Assembly (NCBI GenBank): GCA_001773695.1
Contig: MEXN01000005.1
Location: 67,687-131,686, forward strand
Reading direction: 5' to 3'
DNA: 64,000 nt
Origin: Candidatus Amesbacteria bacterium RIFCSPLOWO2_01_FULL_48_25
GTDB taxonomy: Bacteria > Patescibacteriota > Microgenomatia > CAZETR01 > Amesbacteraceae
In this document: one piece after another, positions 13,281 to 64,000 of the stretch
Layout: each line of letters starts with the position of its first letter
Numbering within the stretch: the first letter of the stretch is position 1
Notes under the pieces: generated by a model
Databases searched by the model: none
Told to the model about the DNA's origin: nothing
What the model saw: the letters and a program-made list of their open reading frames with translations, nothing else
Program-made: the position numbers and the translations under genes

Positions 13281-13871
13281 GTGAGAGTAGCTAGAGCAAT
13301 AAGTAGCCTGATTGAGGCGTTTGAGCGATTGCCGGGGATCGGGCCGAAGTCGGCGGCGCGGCTGACTTATTATCTGTTGCATGTGCCCCAGGGTGAGCTG
13401 GATAAGTTTTCTGGGGCGGTGTCTGATTTGAAGAGGAATACCAAGGAGTGCTCGGTATGTCATAATGTGGCGGAGACGGACCCGTGTGATATATGTGCTG
13501 ACCCAGGCCGGGACCGGAAGATGATTTGTGTGGTAGAGCAGCCGCTGGACGTACTAGCTTTGGAAAGGGGAGATGGATATAAGGGAGTGTATCACGTGCT
13601 GCACGGGGTAATTGATCCGTTACATAATATCGGGCCGGAAGAAATTAAGATAGTCGAGTTAATAGAGAGATTAAGAGATGAAGGAATTAAGGAGGTAATA
13701 TTGGCGTTGAATCCGAATATGGAAGGTGAGGCCACCTGCCTGTATATAAAAAGATTATTGAAGAATGTAAAAGTGACCAGATTGGCGCATGGATTGCCGG
13801 TGGGGGCGGATATTGAGTATGCCGACGATCGGACCTTGGCGCATGCGATGGAGGGGAGGAGGGAATATTAA
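13281..13871 (+). CDS. recR: Recombination protein RecR
   Basis: HhH LPGIGPKSAARL, the C4 zinc finger CSVCHN...CDIC, and a Toprim-like region (VVEQPLDVLALERGDGYKGVYHVL). Confidence 0.9.
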   Translation: MRVARAISSLIEAFERLPGIGPKSAARLTYYLLHVPQGELDKFSGAVSDLKRNTKECSVCHNVAETDPCDICADPGRDRKMICVVEQPLDVLALERGDGYKGVYHVLHGVIDPLHNIGPEEIKIVELIERLRDEGIKEVILALNPNMEGEATCLYIKRLLKNVKVTRLAHGLPVGADIEYADDRTLAHAMEGRREY

Positions 13872-14884
13872 TGATCAGGCCACTTGCTTTAAAGTCGGGT
13901 GATGTGGTGGGGTTGGTGGCGCCGTCTGATGCGGTGGAAAGAGAGGGAGTGGAAAAAAGCCTGGAGATAGTTAAATCCTGGGGATTGAAAGTGAAAGTGG
14001 GGAAACATGTGTATGCCAAAGTTGGAGATTTTATGGCTGGGACGGCGGAGGAAAGAATGGAGGACTTGAAGACGATGATTTTTGATGATGAAGTTAAAGC
14101 AGTTTGGGCGGCATCGGGTGGGTATGCGGTGACAGAGGTGATGCCGGTATTTAACCGGGAGACGATAGATCACCTCAAGGATCATCCTAAATGGTTTATC
14201 GGTTACTCGGATATGTGCATGATTTTAAATGCCTTAACTAGCTTTCGAATGGTGTCTGTTATGGGACCAAATATGTGGGGACTGCATGAGTGGGATAAGA
14301 TGAGCCAGGAGACGGTTTGCAAGATGCTTTTTGGAGAAGAAGTGGGGGGGGTAGGAGAAAAGGCGAGGTGGACGGTGGGTTTGGGGGGAGAAGCGGAAGG
14401 GAGAATTGTGGCTTCCAATCTGGAACTTTTGATCTTGTCTTTCGGGACACGATTTGACCCGATTATGTATGGGGAGGGGGATATTTTGTTGGCCCTCGAG
14501 GAGCTGGACATAGATAAAAGTACGTTGCAGCGGCAAATCGACGTAATTTTTAGTCACAAAAGAGCCAAGAGGATTAGGGGAATAATTGTGGGACGGCTGA
14601 CGAATATTTTGGAGAAATCATATCCGGAGTGGGGAATGAAGGTGACGGCGGAGGAGCTGATTCGCGGGCGAGTGAAAAAAGTAGGCCTGCCATTGGCGTT
14701 TTGCGGAGACTTCGGGCACCCGGAGTGGGCGTATGGGAATTTCCAGGAAATAAAGCGCTTTTTTCATAACCGACGGTTTTACCCGCTGCCGAATGGAATT
14801 TTGACTAAGTTGACAGTGGGGGAAAAAGAATGTAAGTTGGATTTTTTAGAACCCGTGGGTAATATGGAGAACGGTAATGCCTAG
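13871..14884 (+). CDS. ldcA: LD-carboxypeptidase (peptidase S66, LdcA-like)
   Basis: GDVVGLVAPS at the N-terminus, then ASGGYA and the GYSDMCMI nucleophile motif. Confidence 0.75.
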   Translation: MIRPLALKSGDVVGLVAPSDAVEREGVEKSLEIVKSWGLKVKVGKHVYAKVGDFMAGTAEERMEDLKTMIFDDEVKAVWAASGGYAVTEVMPVFNRETIDHLKDHPKWFIGYSDMCMILNALTSFRMVSVMGPNMWGLHEWDKMSQETVCKMLFGEEVGGVGEKARWTVGLGGEAEGRIVASNLELLILSFGTRFDPIMYGEGDILLALEELDIDKSTLQRQIDVIFSHKRAKRIRGIIVGRLTNILEKSYPEWGMKVTAEELIRGRVKKVGLPLAFCGDFGHPEWAYGNFQEIKRFFHNRRFYPLPNGILTKLTVGEKECKLDFLEPVGNMENGNA

Positions 14885-57094: not shown

Positions 57095-57426
57095 GGTAGT
57101 CGCTTTTCACGCGGGGAGGGGAGAGTTTTCACAACTAGGTGATATTACTATGGGACTATCCTGTTGCACTTGGGAAGTGATATTGGGGCTTAACATGGGT
57201 TAGATTACACTAATCTTAGATTTAAATGATATAGTTTGATGTGTATCCCCGAGTAGGGGGGTGCTCCCTTGTTGAGCACAATTTGTGGATAAGTGCTAGG
57301 AAAATGCCGGAGAGAGAGTTATGGATTAAGGTTTGGGGACTGGGGACTAGTAAGAGCAATTAATAAAGTGATAGTGAATAGTAATAGAGATATAGAAAGA
57401 AGGGTTGTTGTTCTTCCCTAGTGGTA

Positions 57427-57455
57427 CTTGACGGCATTACAGTAACTGGGTATAA
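57427..57455 (+). promoter_or_regulatory. Near-consensus sigma70 promoter TTGACG-17-TATAAT, about 70 nt upstream of the xerC-like gene
   Basis: TTGACG at 57427-57432, a 17-bp spacer, and TATAAT at 57450-57455. Sits inside a 430-bp AT-rich non-coding region. Confidence 0.5.
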
Positions 57456-57530
57456 TATCTCTTAGGCTCGGTTACCTTTGATCGGAGGAGACCTAGTCTA
57501 AGAGTTATTAATCCGAGTGATAATTTTCCT

Positions 57531-58493
57531 ATGAATGACGAGGTTCCCCAGAAGTCAAAAGTGAGATTACCCTACTTTGATGAATTCCTCTTATTTCTCA
57601 AGACCCAAAACTATTCCGAAGAAACTTTGTATAACTACGAGGCGGATTTAAAACAGCTGGAACATTTTTTAGAAGAAGAAGAAATTGACTTTCTAGCCTT
57701 GAATAAAGAAAAGGTTAACCATTATAAGGCGTATCTGGTCAGCCGGGAGCGAAAACAGCCGTTTACGGGGCTTACAGCGGGTCGTAAGCTTGAAGCGAGA
57801 TCGGTAAATCGCAACTTATCGACCTTTAGGACTTATTTGCGATATCTCATCGATATGGATCGGAAGGTTCCGGTGCCGCCGGATGCAGTAAAGTTGGTGA
57901 AGACAGATAAGAAACACCCGCAAGTGGCGGAGCTGGCTGAACTAATTTCTCTTATCGAAAGTCCGATGCGGCTTGAGAAAGATCAATTGATTGGGATTCG
58001 CAATCGGGCGATGCTCGAAGTTTTGTTATCCACCGGGATGCGAATTTCGGAACTGGTGTCACTTAATAAAAACCAGCTAGATGGTACGGGTAGATTGTTT
58101 ATCCGCGGTAAGGGACGCAAAGAGAGGTTTGTTTATTTGACCGACAGGGCGGTGTATTGGCTGAACCAATACTTAACCCGAAGGGTGGATCCGGCGCCGG
58201 CGATGTTTGTGCCGTACCGGGGGAATAATGCTGGCAAAATGATTAGGCGGATTTCCACCAATTACTTACAAGCGAAAATTAAGGAGTACAGGGAGAAACT
58301 AAGGATAAATGTACCAACCTCGGCTCATTCGTTGAGACATGGGTTTGCAACTTATCTGGCGGAAAGTGGTGCAAACCCGGCGGCAATACAGGTATTGTTG
58401 GGTCACGAATCTTTGGATACTACAACTCGTTATGTCCATGCGTCGGATAAATTTGCTGAAGAGACGCACCGAAAATTTCATCCGGTAAAATAG
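57531..58493 (+). CDS. xerC: Tyrosine site-specific recombinase (XerC/XerD family)
   Basis: Catalytic residues in context: R in RNRAMLEVLLSTGMRISEL, HSLRHGFAT, and LLGHESLDTTTRYVH, which contains the catalytic Tyr. Confidence 0.8.
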   Translation: MNDEVPQKSKVRLPYFDEFLLFLKTQNYSEETLYNYEADLKQLEHFLEEEEIDFLALNKEKVNHYKAYLVSRERKQPFTGLTAGRKLEARSVNRNLSTFRTYLRYLIDMDRKVPVPPDAVKLVKTDKKHPQVAELAELISLIESPMRLEKDQLIGIRNRAMLEVLLSTGMRISELVSLNKNQLDGTGRLFIRGKGRKERFVYLTDRAVYWLNQYLTRRVDPAPAMFVPYRGNNAGKMIRRISTNYLQAKIKEYREKLRINVPTSAHSLRHGFATYLAESGANPAAIQVLLGHESLDTTTRYVHASDKFAEETHRKFHPVK

Positions 58494-58545: not shown

Positions 58546-58959
58546 TTAAATTTCGTTAATAAATCCACGGCATTTAGGCGAACCACAGTGGCAAACTTCC
58601 AATGGTTCTTTGGAATCGAAGGCGTAGTCGACAGTTAGTTCGTTGCCTTTCGGAATAAATTTGTTGGAATAAAGAAAAACCCGATTTTTAAATCTTTCAG
58701 CGTCGCAATTCGGATCACAGGAGTGATTTATATATTTTGAGTTGTTACCTCCGATTGCAGCGTCGATACTGTATCTGTCGTTGACGTCGAAGATATATGT
58801 GATACCAATTTTTTCGTTTTGTTTTTCGCGACGTGCTTCCTCTTTTTTGTCAATTAACTCTCCAGTATATTCAATTATCCGAGTGCCGACCGGGATATCT
58901 TGACCCGCAAAAATTCCGAAATTGTGGATATGAGATTTTTTTACAAAAGTTTTAATCAT
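58546..58959 (-). CDS. SET-domain protein (putative protein-lysine methyltransferase)
   Basis: GIFAGQDIPVGTRIIEYTGELI, NHSCDPNC, ELTVDY, and the post-SET CHCGSPKC cysteine cluster. Confidence 0.7.
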   Translation of the reverse strand: MIKTFVKKSHIHNFGIFAGQDIPVGTRIIEYTGELIDKKEEARREKQNEKIGITYIFDVNDRYSIDAAIGGNNSKYINHSCDPNCDAERFKNRVFLYSNKFIPKGNELTVDYAFDSKEPLEVCHCGSPKCRGFINEI

Positions 58960-59111
58960 TAATTTTATTTCAATAATTTATTACGCACAAATATGATATT
59001 TAACGCCTTAGTAGGGCCATAAAAAAACTTGACATAAAATTGATTATTATTCAGACTCAATTGTATTAGTTGTATAGTGTTTGTTTGAAATGAAAATTTC
59101 AAAAGCCGTTA

Positions 59112-60071
59112 ATGAAAAGAATAAATTCGATAACTGTATTATATAACTTACCCGAATTGAGTGATGAATCGGACACTGATACGCAAAAATCGGCTCAGAG
59201 AGTGGCGGAGGAATTGAAGCGATATTATGACGTTAGAATATTGGGAATTGATAGTAACGATATTGGTAATTTGATGAATTTAAAAACGGATTTTGTGTTT
59301 AATCTGGTCGAGTGGTCGGGACTAAATTCGCAATGGGGAGTGAAAGTTATCGAGACTTTGGAAAAGGCCGGTCTCCCCTACTCTGGTTCTAACTCTTGGG
59401 GGTATTGGTTGTCATGTAATAAAAAAATTATGAAAGAAGAGATGGATAAAAAAAATATTCCTACACCAAGATGGTTTGTAAACGAGGGCAAGTTGAAATT
59501 TCCGGTGATTGTGAAACCCGTGCTTGAGCATTGTGGGATAGGAATTTCGCAAACCAGTGTTTGCTACAACGACCAAGACACAAGAAACAAGGTACAAGAA
59601 ATGATGGAAAAATATAAACAACCGGTGTTGGTGGAAGAATATATCGACGGGCGGGAGTTGCATGTGACTATTCTGGAAAAAAACGGGGAACCGTGGGTGC
59701 TGCCACCTGCCGAGGTGATTTATGAGAAAAAAGAAGGGCATGTGCCGATTTTGTCCTACGAAATGAAGTGGAACGAGAAGTCGGAAGAGTACAAAATGGC
59801 TAGGATGCAGGTGGCGAAATTGGATAAGAGGCTTGAGAAAGAGGTAGGGAGAATCGCTAAAAAGTGCTATTTGGAATTGGGGGGAAGGGATTATCCCCGT
59901 TTGGATCTAAGAATTAGGGATAATGAGATTTTTGTGTTGGAGATAAATAACAATCCGGGTATTGATTACGATGTTGAAAGCGGTATTGGTGTGTCTGCAA
60001 GAGCGGTGAGTTTGAATTGGGAAGACTTACTGAAACACATTGTGGAAAACGCTTGGAGGAGGTTTGTATGA
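59112..60071 (+). CDS. ATP-grasp ligase, D-Ala-D-Ala ligase (Ddl)-like, copy 1
   Basis: Ddl-type layout with EEYIDGRELHVTIL and the C-terminal RLDLRI..NEIFVLEINNNPGI. Confidence 0.7.
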   Translation: MKRINSITVLYNLPELSDESDTDTQKSAQRVAEELKRYYDVRILGIDSNDIGNLMNLKTDFVFNLVEWSGLNSQWGVKVIETLEKAGLPYSGSNSWGYWLSCNKKIMKEEMDKKNIPTPRWFVNEGKLKFPVIVKPVLEHCGIGISQTSVCYNDQDTRNKVQEMMEKYKQPVLVEEYIDGRELHVTILEKNGEPWVLPPAEVIYEKKEGHVPILSYEMKWNEKSEEYKMARMQVAKLDKRLEKEVGRIAKKCYLELGGRDYPRLDLRIRDNEIFVLEINNNPGIDYDVESGIGVSARAVSLNWEDLLKHIVENAWRRFV

Positions 60072-61117
60072 CTCCATTACATTTTGATTATCCGATTTCC
60101 GTGGCGGTATTGTATTACGGGGGGGAAGCCGGTGATTTACAGGATACTGAGGAGGCAGTAGAAGGAATTACCCAAGCTCTGGAAGAAAACGGACACGTGG
60201 TCCGGACGATGTTGGTGAATGAAAGAAATTGGTTGAGGGCGGTTCGGACGCCGGGTGAGGTGGTGTTTAATTTGGTGGAAGATCCAATGTGGGAGTTGTA
60301 CGTAAAAGTGGGGCAAAGGTTGGAAATGCTGGGGAGAGCTCAGGTGGGACATGATATGAAATGTTTCAAGTATGCGACACGTAAGGCGTGGGTAAAAAAT
60401 CGGATGCAAAAATTGGGAATAAGCACCCCGAATTTTAGGATATTTAACCGGAGATCTAAGTTTAGTCAGGTGCGGGGACTTGAATTTCCATTAATGGTTA
60501 AGCCGTCCAGGCAGCACGCTGGGATTGGGATTTCCCAGGACTCGGTGGTGATTGACCAGCAGGAATTGGAAGAAAGAGTGAAGTATTTGTTTAGTAATTT
60601 TCCCGGAGAAGTAATTGCGGAAGAGTTTGTAGATGGGCGGGAAATTCACGTCACTTTGATGGGTAATAATAGGCGGGTGGTGGCGCTGCCAGCGAGTGAA
60701 GTAAGTTTTGGGGGAGAGTTTGTAGACAATTGGGATGTATATTCCTATGAGGCTAAGTGGGATAAGAAGTCTTGGGAGTATTGGGACGCGCGGGTGGAGG
60801 CACCGGCGAAATTGCCCCGCAAACTGGAGGAAAAGATAGAGAAACTGGCTATCGGTGCGTATAGGGCATTTGGGTGTCGGGATATTGCCAGAATAGACTT
60901 AAGGCTTAATGAAAAGGACCGACCGTTTATTGTCGATGTAAATATGAACCCCAGCCTAAATAAATTTGACGATCAGGATGCGACGCTGGCGTCCGTTTAT
61001 GCATTGGACTGGACGTATGAGCAATTTGTGGAGACCTTAGTGGCGATTACTTATAAACGTGTTTATGGGAGGTTGCCGGACCGGATTCGCGAGCGGCAAT
61101 TGATGCTGACGGCATGA
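60068..61117 (+). CDS. ATP-grasp ligase, Ddl-like, copy 2 (paralog of the upstream gene)
   Basis: EEFVDGREIHVTLM and RIDLRLNEKDRPFIVDVNMNPSL. The ATG overlaps the upstream stop (ATGA). Confidence 0.7.
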   Translation: MTPLHFDYPISVAVLYYGGEAGDLQDTEEAVEGITQALEENGHVVRTMLVNERNWLRAVRTPGEVVFNLVEDPMWELYVKVGQRLEMLGRAQVGHDMKCFKYATRKAWVKNRMQKLGISTPNFRIFNRRSKFSQVRGLEFPLMVKPSRQHAGIGISQDSVVIDQQELEERVKYLFSNFPGEVIAEEFVDGREIHVTLMGNNRRVVALPASEVSFGGEFVDNWDVYSYEAKWDKKSWEYWDARVEAPAKLPRKLEEKIEKLAIGAYRAFGCRDIARIDLRLNEKDRPFIVDVNMNPSLNKFDDQDATLASVYALDWTYEQFVETLVAITYKRVYGRLPDRIRERQLMLTA

Positions 61118-61497
61118 TACTTGAAGACGGAAAAACTAACACCCAGTTCGGTCAAGAGCTTATACTGGACTTGTACGAGTGCGATTTGAAAAGAATTTCT
61201 GACGGGGAGCATATCCGAAAATATATTGTTAAATTGTGTGATGAAGTGATTTTGATGAAGAGATATAAAGGGCCGTTGATTGAACATTTCGGACATGATA
61301 ATCCAATTACAGCGGGATACTCGGTGGTGCAACTTATAGAGACTAGCTGCGTCTCGGGACACTTTTCTGAATACAAAAAATCCTGTTACATTAATATTTT
61401 TTCGTGCAAATGGTTTGATGCGGATGCTGCGGCGGAGTTTACTAAGAACTGGTTTGGAGCTACCTCGTTTCGTAGGAAAGTGTTACAACGGAGGTGA
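61114..61497 (+). CDS. S-adenosylmethionine decarboxylase-like pyruvoyl-dependent decarboxylase (SpeH/PdaD family)
   Basis: 127 aa. LILDLYECD, LIETSCVSGHFSEY (corresponding to the ESH-type self-cleavage region) and NIFSCKWFD follow the class 1a AdoMetDC pattern. The start overlaps the upstream stop. Confidence 0.55.
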   Translation: MILEDGKTNTQFGQELILDLYECDLKRISDGEHIRKYIVKLCDEVILMKRYKGPLIEHFGHDNPITAGYSVVQLIETSCVSGHFSEYKKSCYINIFSCKWFDADAAAEFTKNWFGATSFRRKVLQRR

Positions 61498-63623: not shown

Positions 63624-63977
63624 TTATTGAGTTGTAATTAAGTGGGAAATTAGTATTTGGTCCAACTTGTCCGAATTTAATTTATGAACTTCGTCCTTTT
63701 TTTCTTGTTTCTCAGCGTCCCTGTCGTAGTAGGCTTCACCTACTTTACCGAATCCGCAGGCTCGGAGAACGTTTCGGGATTTTATATTTTGAGGATCGAT
63801 GGTGGCTATAAAAATTGTCTCGTGGTGTGTGAGTCCTTTGCCACTCGCATAGGCCTTTATGGCTTGCCTGGTGGCACTGGCTACTTGATTAGGTTTGGCT
63901 CCCGGGAGAGCAGCAAAGCTGACTTCTGAAAGTTTAGTATCTGGTATATTAATTCCTCCCTTCTTGAAACAATCCAT
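63624..63977 (-). CDS. GNAT-family acetyltransferase-like protein (probably partial; N-terminus beyond the window)
   Basis: SRNVLRACGF near the C-terminus is the typical GNAT motif D region. Confidence 0.35.
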   Translation of the reverse strand: MDCFKKGGINIPDTKLSEVSFAALPGAKPNQVASATRQAIKAYASGKGLTHHETIFIATIDPQNIKSRNVLRACGFGKVGEAYYDRDAEKQEKKDEVHKLNSDKLDQILISHLITTQ

Positions 63978-64000
63978 TGATTCCTGGCTTACGGGATAAA

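Follow-up and report, generated by a model that had tools for sequence, protein, structure and literature searches.

Two Ddl-like ATP-grasp ligases in an operon with a predicted pyruvoyl-dependent ornithine decarboxylase in an Amesbacteria genome

The window analysed here is a stretch of 64,000 nucleotides from Candidatus Amesbacteria bacterium RIFCSPLOWO2_01_FULL_48_25 (contig MEXN01000005.1, positions 67,687 to 131,686), a bacterium of the candidate phyla radiation (CPR), and the subject is an operon of three + strand genes, called AG1, AG2 and DC, whose ends overlap as ATGA. AG1 (59112-60071), the first gene, encodes an ATP-grasp amide ligase of 319 aa resembling D-Ala-D-Ala ligase (Ddl; Pfam Dala_Dala_lig_C, 88 bits), AG2 (60068-61117) encodes a second Ddl-like ligase of 349 aa (103 bits), and DC (61114-61497) encodes a protein of 127 aa that scores 56.4 bits on AdoMet_dc, for which the gathering score is 25, and is predicted to be the proenzyme of a SpeDC-type pyruvoyl L-ornithine decarboxylase. 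The two ligases are paralogues (31% identity, E 3e-43). Both overlaps can be read in the sequence, the first from the ATG at 60068-70 and the TGA at 60069-71, the second from the ATG at 61114-16 and the TGA at 61115-17. The reading frame of AG2 could reach further 5', to a TTG at 60017 in the program-made list; its start is placed at the ATG at 60068 because the homologues are 348-353 aa long and GGAGGAGG supplies a Shine-Dalgarno sequence. The coding strand between the three genes holds no terminator-like site. A SET-domain gene (58546-58959, - strand, 137 aa; Pfam SET, 88 bits) is divergent from AG1, and the 152 bp that separate them (58960-59111, GC 0.24) are the likely promoter region of both the operon and the SET gene. 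Sigma-70-like matches in this region, at 59050-59078 (+) and 59089-59060 (-), are weak and no more frequent than expected by chance. The positions and identities of these genes, the translational coupling and the paralogy of the ligases are all as the preliminary description of this DNA had them.

The small decarboxylase carries the residues expected of a self-processing enzyme. A profile of 14 DC homologues aligns end to end, but weakly (E 0.2-0.35), with SpeD of T. maritima (1TLU/1VR7). S78, H83 and C98 of DC, which are invariant in the 14 homologues, fall on S63, H68 and C83 of that protein with identical 5- and 20-residue spacing, and in SpeD these are the residues required for self-processing and catalysis. 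The self-cleavage serine, whose lack would have counted against the preliminary description, is therefore present; its codon lies at 61345-61347 (+ strand, read from the sequence) and would mark both the cleavage site T77|S78 and the pyruvoyl precursor.

Homologues of S-adenosylmethionine decarboxylase (AdoMetDC) that have turned into pyruvoyl-dependent L-ornithine decarboxylases are known as SpeDC; they derive from class 1b AdoMetDC/SpeD and are reported from many phyla, including CPR, and from phages (Li et al. 2023, PMC10407285). In the central region of the protein a Gln, a Thr, a Phe and a Tyr separate SpeDC from AdoMetDC and arginine decarboxylases (PMC10407285). Located by alignment rather than taken from Fig. 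8 of the paper, the corresponding positions in DC are Q73, T77, F84 and Y92, all of them invariant in its homologues and the same in the ornithine decarboxylase (ODC) module of the Ca. Omnitrophica fusion protein KXK35843. The DC stretch VVQLIETSCVSGHFSEYKKSCYINIFSC matches LVQLIETSLVSGHFANCSNGAYIDIFSC in the C-terminal module of that fusion (Fig. S5), the motif QLIETS..GHF..Y.NIFSC is common to both, and the identity between DC and the module is 38% (E 3e-28). KXK35843 decarboxylated L-ornithine, and in the D. phosphitoxidans fusion the equivalent C-terminal module has ODC activity that is lost in the S229A mutant (PMC10407285). Ser78 of DC aligns with the Ser of the 'IETS' motif in the D. 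phosphitoxidans protein. True SpeD proteins (L084, T. maritima) have 'ESH.(S/T)IHTWPE' in place of the Thr-Ser signature. Hence the signature and the family context make it likely that DC is a SpeDC, which would cut itself between T77 and S78, convert S78 to the pyruvoyl group and turn free L-ornithine into putrescine. One point against this assignment is the phage phiN3 protein, which belongs to the ODC-like clade and is nevertheless a true AdoMetDC; it has Asp, not Thr, before the processing Ser. Given the Thr-Ser, Gln, Phe and Tyr signature, a true AdoMetDC or an arginine decarboxylase is less likely than an ODC.

A search of 5.8 billion proteins returned 212 relatives of DC, of which the 120 listed are 58-99% identical; wherever an organism name is given, it is that of a CPR bacterium (Amesbacteria, Patescibacteria). 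Among 185,579 species genomes a scan gave 332 relatives, and 42 were found on viral contigs, in line with PMC9992855. A place beside speD/speE is the one described for SpeDC genes (PMC10407285). Such a setting is seen in L068, L069, L073, L074, L077, L078 and L081-L084 (loci from other genomes are cited by number), where a bona fide speD and/or speE directly adjoins the DC homologue; these come from Clostridia, Planctomycetota, Omnitrophota and other bacteria. DC is, on its sequence, a new member of a published family, which it extends to Amesbacteria, and by itself it is ordinary. The preliminary description had supposed that the decarboxylase acts on a peptide made by the ligases and that it is unexpected in such an organism. 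Neither supposition is supported, as DC falls in the SpeDC clade, which uses free L-ornithine and is known to be common in CPR bacteria (PMC10407285).

The ligases resemble Ddl without reaching the limits set for that family. The NCBIfam model NF002378 (Ddl) has a cut-off of 243 bits, of which AG1 reaches 117 and AG2 110, and on TIGR01205 the scores are 101 and 103 bits against 246. By sequence, the nearest proteins of known structure are Ddl, VanA-type and D-Ala-D-lactate ligases (best E 1e-17). For AG2, an AlphaFold2 model (pLDDT 91.9) gave Foldseek TM scores of 0.75-0.87 to Ddl structures at 16-25% identity; the best 50 PDB matches listed for it are all Ddl or D-Ala-D-lactate/VanA-type, and the structural comparison therefore adds no further functional clue. 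AG2 scores 130-178 bits to the members of a broad family of similar ligases and only 67 bits to the best solved Ddl. Homologues of both proteins carry merely the name 'ATP-grasp domain-containing protein' in the NCBI pipeline.

ATP-grasp ligases use ATP to convert a carboxylate to an acyl-phosphate, which is then joined to an amine. When 108 AG1 and 115 AG2 orthologues are aligned with E. coli DdlB, whose numbering is used here, the ATP, Mg and transition-state residues K97, K144, E180, K215, R255, D257, E270 and N272 are kept, with Asp for E270 in AG2, and both proteins are hence predicted to be catalytically intact ligases. The substrate side is different. E15 is Ala or Ser in AG1 and Asp in AG2, H63 is Glu in both, G149 is His in both, S150 is Cys in AG1 and Ala in AG2, and Y216 is Trp in 222 of the 223 AG1 and AG2 sequences, a position at which Van ligases have His or Phe. 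S281, which in Ddl helps to bind the carboxylate of the second substrate, is kept in AG1 and is Asp in AG2 (107 of 115 orthologues).

These replacements bear on the simplest alternative, namely that AG1 and/or AG2 are divergent D-Ala-D-Ala or D-Ala-D-X ligases and that the operon serves ordinary peptidoglycan precursors. Ddl is the closest characterised family in sequence and fold, the catalytic residues are intact, the ligases of L021 adjoin an LD-carboxypeptidase and a protein faintly like MurL, and no other Ddl paralogue is seen in the window or in the fetched loci, which cover a small part of each genome. Against this, neither ligase attains even half the NCBIfam cut-offs for Ddl, more than 220 sequences carry substitutions at the D-Ala-binding positions E15, S150 and Y216, the broad family forms arrays with acetyltransferases of the GNAT type, and no mur or fts gene occurs among those neighbours of AG loci that have a Pfam annotation or among the recurrent neighbour clusters that are annotated. 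A canonical Ddl is rejected on family score, active-site residues and the context given by annotated neighbours, and the alternative of a divergent Ddl is unlikely. That AG1 and AG2 are something other than D-Ala-D-Ala ligases is thus probable with good confidence, and the preliminary view that they are not ordinary Ddl enzymes is borne out. A graspetide/microviridin-type system of ribosomally synthesised and post-translationally modified peptides was also considered, an idea that came from the two ATP-grasp genes beside a stand-alone Peptidase_C39 gene in relatives. It was dropped: every best match of the ligases in Pfam and NCBIfam is Ddl-type, the window lacks a C39 gene, and there is no evident precursor peptide.

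The broad family to which the ligases belong is large. Searched exhaustively, 1.84 billion representatives gave 251 clusters, defined at 50% identity, at E <= 1e-30 and 3451 at E <= 1e-10, and many of the members are fusions of two ligase units (AG-AG, 650-720 aa) or of a ligase with a GNAT (AG-GNAT, ~500 aa). When a more distant member served as the seed for a metagenome scan, 80 loci (L096-L175) without taxonomic labels were obtained, one of them a 2.3-Mb contig. In 79 of these 80 loci there are 152 family members, arranged in arrays of two or three; the array is followed by a small GNAT (~159 aa) in 25 loci and by a fusion of GNAT and histone deacetylase (580 aa) in six. Arrays with a GNAT outside CPR are exemplified by L156 (3390-5716) and L137 (857-3147). 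Literature searches found no description of an operon of Ddl-like, GNAT and deacetylase genes. AG1 and AG2 can be assigned, because of their scores, the replacement of the D-Ala residues and the arrays and fusions of the family, to a widespread uncharacterised family of predicted paired amide ligases that is distinct from Ddl proper; they may still have a role related to the wall.

The trio AG1-AG2-DC recurs in nine distinct relatives (L001/L002/L003/L013, L004/L015, L005/L006, L007, L009-L012 and L014), as the preliminary description had proposed to look for, which puts the arrangement beyond chance. It is kept although the identity of AG1 falls to 33-55%. The syntenic order is YebC, DUF5656, XerC, variable genes, AG1, AG2 and DC, followed by a Peptidase_C39 gene and a membrane protein of ~510 aa in some cases, SIMPL, other genes and GyrA. 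This order from YebC to GyrA, in which DC is sometimes missing, is conserved among Amesbacteria and other Microgenomates. In L014 the trio is permuted to AG2-DC-AG, and in L021, which comes from a different CPR lineage, DC lies between two AG-family genes on the opposite strand. The operon with ODC is confined to one CPR lineage, and literature searches found no description of an operon of ATP-grasp and SpeD/ODC genes.

Several of these loci have features of their own. In the Amesbacteria long-read assembly L004 (6051-6945; = L015) three fragments of 80, 36 and 106 aa take the place of AG1, owing either to pseudogene formation or to assembly frameshifts, and AG2 and DC are intact. In the Amesbacteria-like L008 (1283-2314) the DC gene is followed by a GNAT-type protein of 343 aa (Acetyltransf_6, PF13480), with no ligase pair directly upstream. 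L021 (1968-7362) has the Ddl-like ligases together with an LD-carboxypeptidase (Peptidase_S66), a short SpeE-like protein (~190-200 aa) and a protein of 456 aa that resembles MurL only faintly (24 bits, where the cut-off is 700). L096 (1-4668) repeats the AG-LdcA-SpeE-like part of L021.

A working model can be offered tentatively on the strength of these sequences and of analogy, in which putrescine would serve as the accepting amine, either in the formation of amino-acyl or peptidyl amides or in the modification of a cell-wall peptide. DC would cleave itself at T77|S78 and convert L-ornithine to putrescine. Each of the ligases would use ATP to phosphorylate a carboxylate and would then couple it to an amine, which in Amesbacteria would be putrescine. 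AG2 would acylate putrescine with an amino acid; it is chosen for this step because it is directly upstream of DC and coupled to it, and because it has Asp in place of the predicted carboxylate-binding Ser281. AG1, which retains Ser281, would attach a second residue or make it ready, to give an amino-acyl or dipeptidyl putrescine by the logic of the hsvABC operon for phevamine A. In a wall variant of the model, hinted at by the context in L021 and L096, putrescine would be joined to a carboxylate of the peptidoglycan stem peptide. The functional link between ligases and decarboxylase draws support from the ATGA overlaps, the retention of the trio, the permutation in L014 and the cluster in L021. 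Of the functions named in the preliminary description, a polyamine-amino acid conjugate or a modified wall precursor is still the best guess.

A good deal weighs against this model. The argument from Ser281 to Asp is built on alignments of 22-25% identity, and overlapping gene ends are frequent in compact CPR genomes. At the same locus in L092 (a 775-kb contig) and L093 the order is XerC-AG1-AG2-SIMPL-GyrA without DC, Woesebacteria L091 carries the AG1-AG2 pair alone, the AG2 homologues of other Microgenomates loci (L087-L089) do not adjoin DC, and on one 1.02-Mb contig an AG2 homologue and DC are 570 kb apart. Conversely, 65 of the 80 DC genome loci are without a ligase, and the neighbours of DC differ from place to place; in Gottesmanbacteria, for example, they are EamA transporters, a secreted GDSL hydrolase and Tdh/Kbl. 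None of the 80 broad-family loci has a DC homologue, and the usual partner of the ligase family is a GNAT, not a decarboxylase.

Rather than one obligate cassette, as the preliminary description had supposed, the operon joins two modules, each of which is conserved separately, and the trio is not obligate. The adjacency may thus be incidental: DC would give putrescine for general needs, as it does in other CPR bacteria, the ligases would make an unrelated product, for example a (possibly N-acetylated) di- or tripeptide, and the genes would have become neighbours when a compact genome was rearranged in a single lineage. This explanation is nearly as likely as the putrescine-conjugate model. It has to contend with the presence of the trio, translationally coupled, in nine related genomes, with a clustering that survives permuted order (L014) and differing strands (L021), with the SpeE-like gene that is also present in L021, and with the GNAT-histone-deacetylase partners, which would suit polyamine acetylation chemistry. 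A broader form of the putrescine-conjugate model, in which the whole Ddl-like family with Lys215-Trp216 consists of amino acid:polyamine or peptide:polyamine ligases with amino-acyl or peptidyl putrescine or wall-attached putrescine as products, is doubtful. If the family did act on polyamines, its GNAT, GNAT-deacetylase and SpeE-like partners would acetylate, deacetylate and alkylate the same polyamine scaffold.

The position of the operon downstream of a tyrosine recombinase gene (57531-58493, + strand; Phage_integrase, 118 bits) had led to the suggestion of horizontal acquisition through that enzyme. The recombinase lies upstream, the GC content at 57-60 kb (0.39-0.43) is somewhat below the window mean of 0.478, and the gene content of the interval between xerC and AG1 differs among relatives, with SET, MFS, RHH-Nudix and HD genes as the variable occupants. 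However, the recombinase is of the XerC/XerD type (its 195 bits on the XerC model fall short of the equivalog cut-off, 335), and orthologues 75-87% identical stand at the same position in L001-L015, L092 and L093; it is a conserved chromosomal Xer-type gene, not a marker of a mobile element. Comparable dips in GC occur at other places in the window, and the third-codon GC skew of AG1 (+0.48), AG2 (+0.57) and DC (+0.26) is in step with the strong strand bias of the genome. Because the synteny from xerC to gyrA is conserved and the third-codon skew matches the genome, horizontal acquisition is unsupported, and capture through the neighbouring recombinase is improbable in the extreme. A mobile cassette or integron-like unit is likewise rejected on synteny and composition. 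The operon is vertically inherited in an Amesbacteria-like CPR bacterium.

The strand bias extends over the whole window (1-64000: G 32.4%, C 15.4%, GC skew +0.357), where the skew rises monotonically with no switch. Genes on the + strand have third-codon skews of +0.26 to +0.72 and those on the - strand, in the coding sense, of -0.41 to -0.59, and because the sign is opposite in the latter the asymmetry reflects a mutational bias of the strand, for which gene orientation does not account. The syntenic loci of relatives have skews of +0.12 to +0.29.

The SET gene, which had been counted as part of the unit, is present at this position in L005/L006 and not in L001-L004; as its presence varies and it is absent or replaced in some relatives, it is rejected as a functional partner. 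Four Gottesmanbacteria-type loci without ligases (L020, L023, L027 and L033) have SET genes 51-53% identical to it, 4-5 kb from DC, and SET and DC may share an older neighbourhood. Upstream of the recombinase gene there is indeed a non-coding stretch (57095-57530, 436 bp) where a 430-bp AT-rich region had been described; its GC of 0.415, compared with 0.478 in the window as a whole, makes it no more than mildly AT-rich, and the truly AT-rich spacer is the 152-bp divergent region. Neither an Rfam nor a tRNA match for an RNA gene was found in the 436 bp. Short blocks of it, at ~57104-57159, 57216-57240 and 57438-57504, are kept in Amesbacteria relatives, and a near-consensus sigma-70-like promoter (TTGACG-17-TATAAT) lies at 57428-57456. 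On the other side of the operon, a convergent gene of the SIMPL family runs 38 bp into the end of DC. An open reading frame truncated at the window end (63624-63998, - strand) has a weak, sub-threshold GNAT match (Acetyltransf_3, E 0.0095), worth noting only because elsewhere the ligase family is usually partnered by GNATs. An LD-carboxypeptidase gene (Peptidase_S66) at 13871-14884 (+ strand) indicates turnover of peptidoglycan peptides in this bacterium. The remainder of the window holds ordinary CPR housekeeping genes, such as those for TGT, DnaX, CysRS, HisRS, DnaB, RF, HtrA and a CtpA-like protein.

The decarboxylase fits what is known of CPR bacteria, in which a small cofactor-free enzyme makes putrescine. 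Of more use is its link to the ligases, by which a widespread family of paired Ddl-like ATP-grasp enzymes gains a testable substrate lead, with putrescine as acceptor. Members of this family are routinely mis-annotated as 'D-alanine-D-alanine ligase' in public records and could pass for van-type ligases in surveys of resistance genes. If the putrescine-conjugate model is true, organisms that lack almost all biosynthesis would have a new route to polyamine amides or to walls decorated with polyamines, and if the wall variant is true it would name a long-missing type of enzyme for diamine-containing peptidoglycan. If the model is false, the result stands as a warning that AG genes should not pass for Ddl or Van ligases when the metabolism of CPR bacteria is reconstructed.

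The operon can be compared with four known systems. Ddl enzymes are the closest characterised relatives of AG1 and AG2 by sequence and structure, and the three-domain ATP-grasp architecture and the ATP/Mg and transition-state residues are the same in both. The differences are the replacement of the substrate-binding residues E15, H63, S150 and Y216, plus S281 in AG2, the scores far below the family cut-offs, the pairing of paralogues and the missing mur/fts context among the annotated neighbours. Likewise, DC shares with SpeDC its size, the fold family PF02675, the Ser/His/Cys processing residues, the motif 'VQLIETS..GHF..Y.(N/D)IFSC' as in the ODC module of KXK35843 and the Gln/Thr/Phe/Tyr signature at the aligned positions. 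It differs in that it clusters with two ATP-grasp ligases and not with speD, speE, hss or casdh/casdc; its activity is a prediction, with 38% identity to the one validated module aligned.

For the wall variant there are precedents of ATP-dependent decoration of the stem peptide, to which AG1 and AG2 are likened by description only. Aslfm of Enterococcus faecium, a D-aspartate ligase of the ATP-grasp type, is said to add a side-chain residue to the peptidoglycan precursor, according to work by Bellais and colleagues from 2006. Similarly, Kamio and co-workers reportedly found putrescine or cadaverine in the peptidoglycan of Selenomonas and Veillonella, amide-linked to the alpha-carboxyl of D-Glu. 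Literature searches found no description that brings together ATP-grasp, putrescine and peptidoglycan, and the wall-related hints on the side of the operon are limited to the LD-carboxypeptidase in L021 and L096 and the faintly MurL-like neighbour.

The nearest likeness to the working model is the hsvABC operon of Pseudomonas syringae, which makes phevamine A. There an amidinotransferase modifies spermidine, and ATP-grasp ligases add the amino acids in turn, HsvC adding Val and HsvB then adding Phe (O'Neill et al., PNAS 2018, PMC6187163). None of the annotated neighbours of AG1-AG2-DC has an amidinotransferase domain. Compared by the description in PMC6187163, the likeness is one of logic rather than of membership: the Pseudomonas amidinotransferase acts on spermidine, whereas the enzyme here is a decarboxylase predicted to make putrescine, and in both cases a three-gene operon combines two ATP-grasp ligases with an enzyme that supplies or modifies a polyamine.

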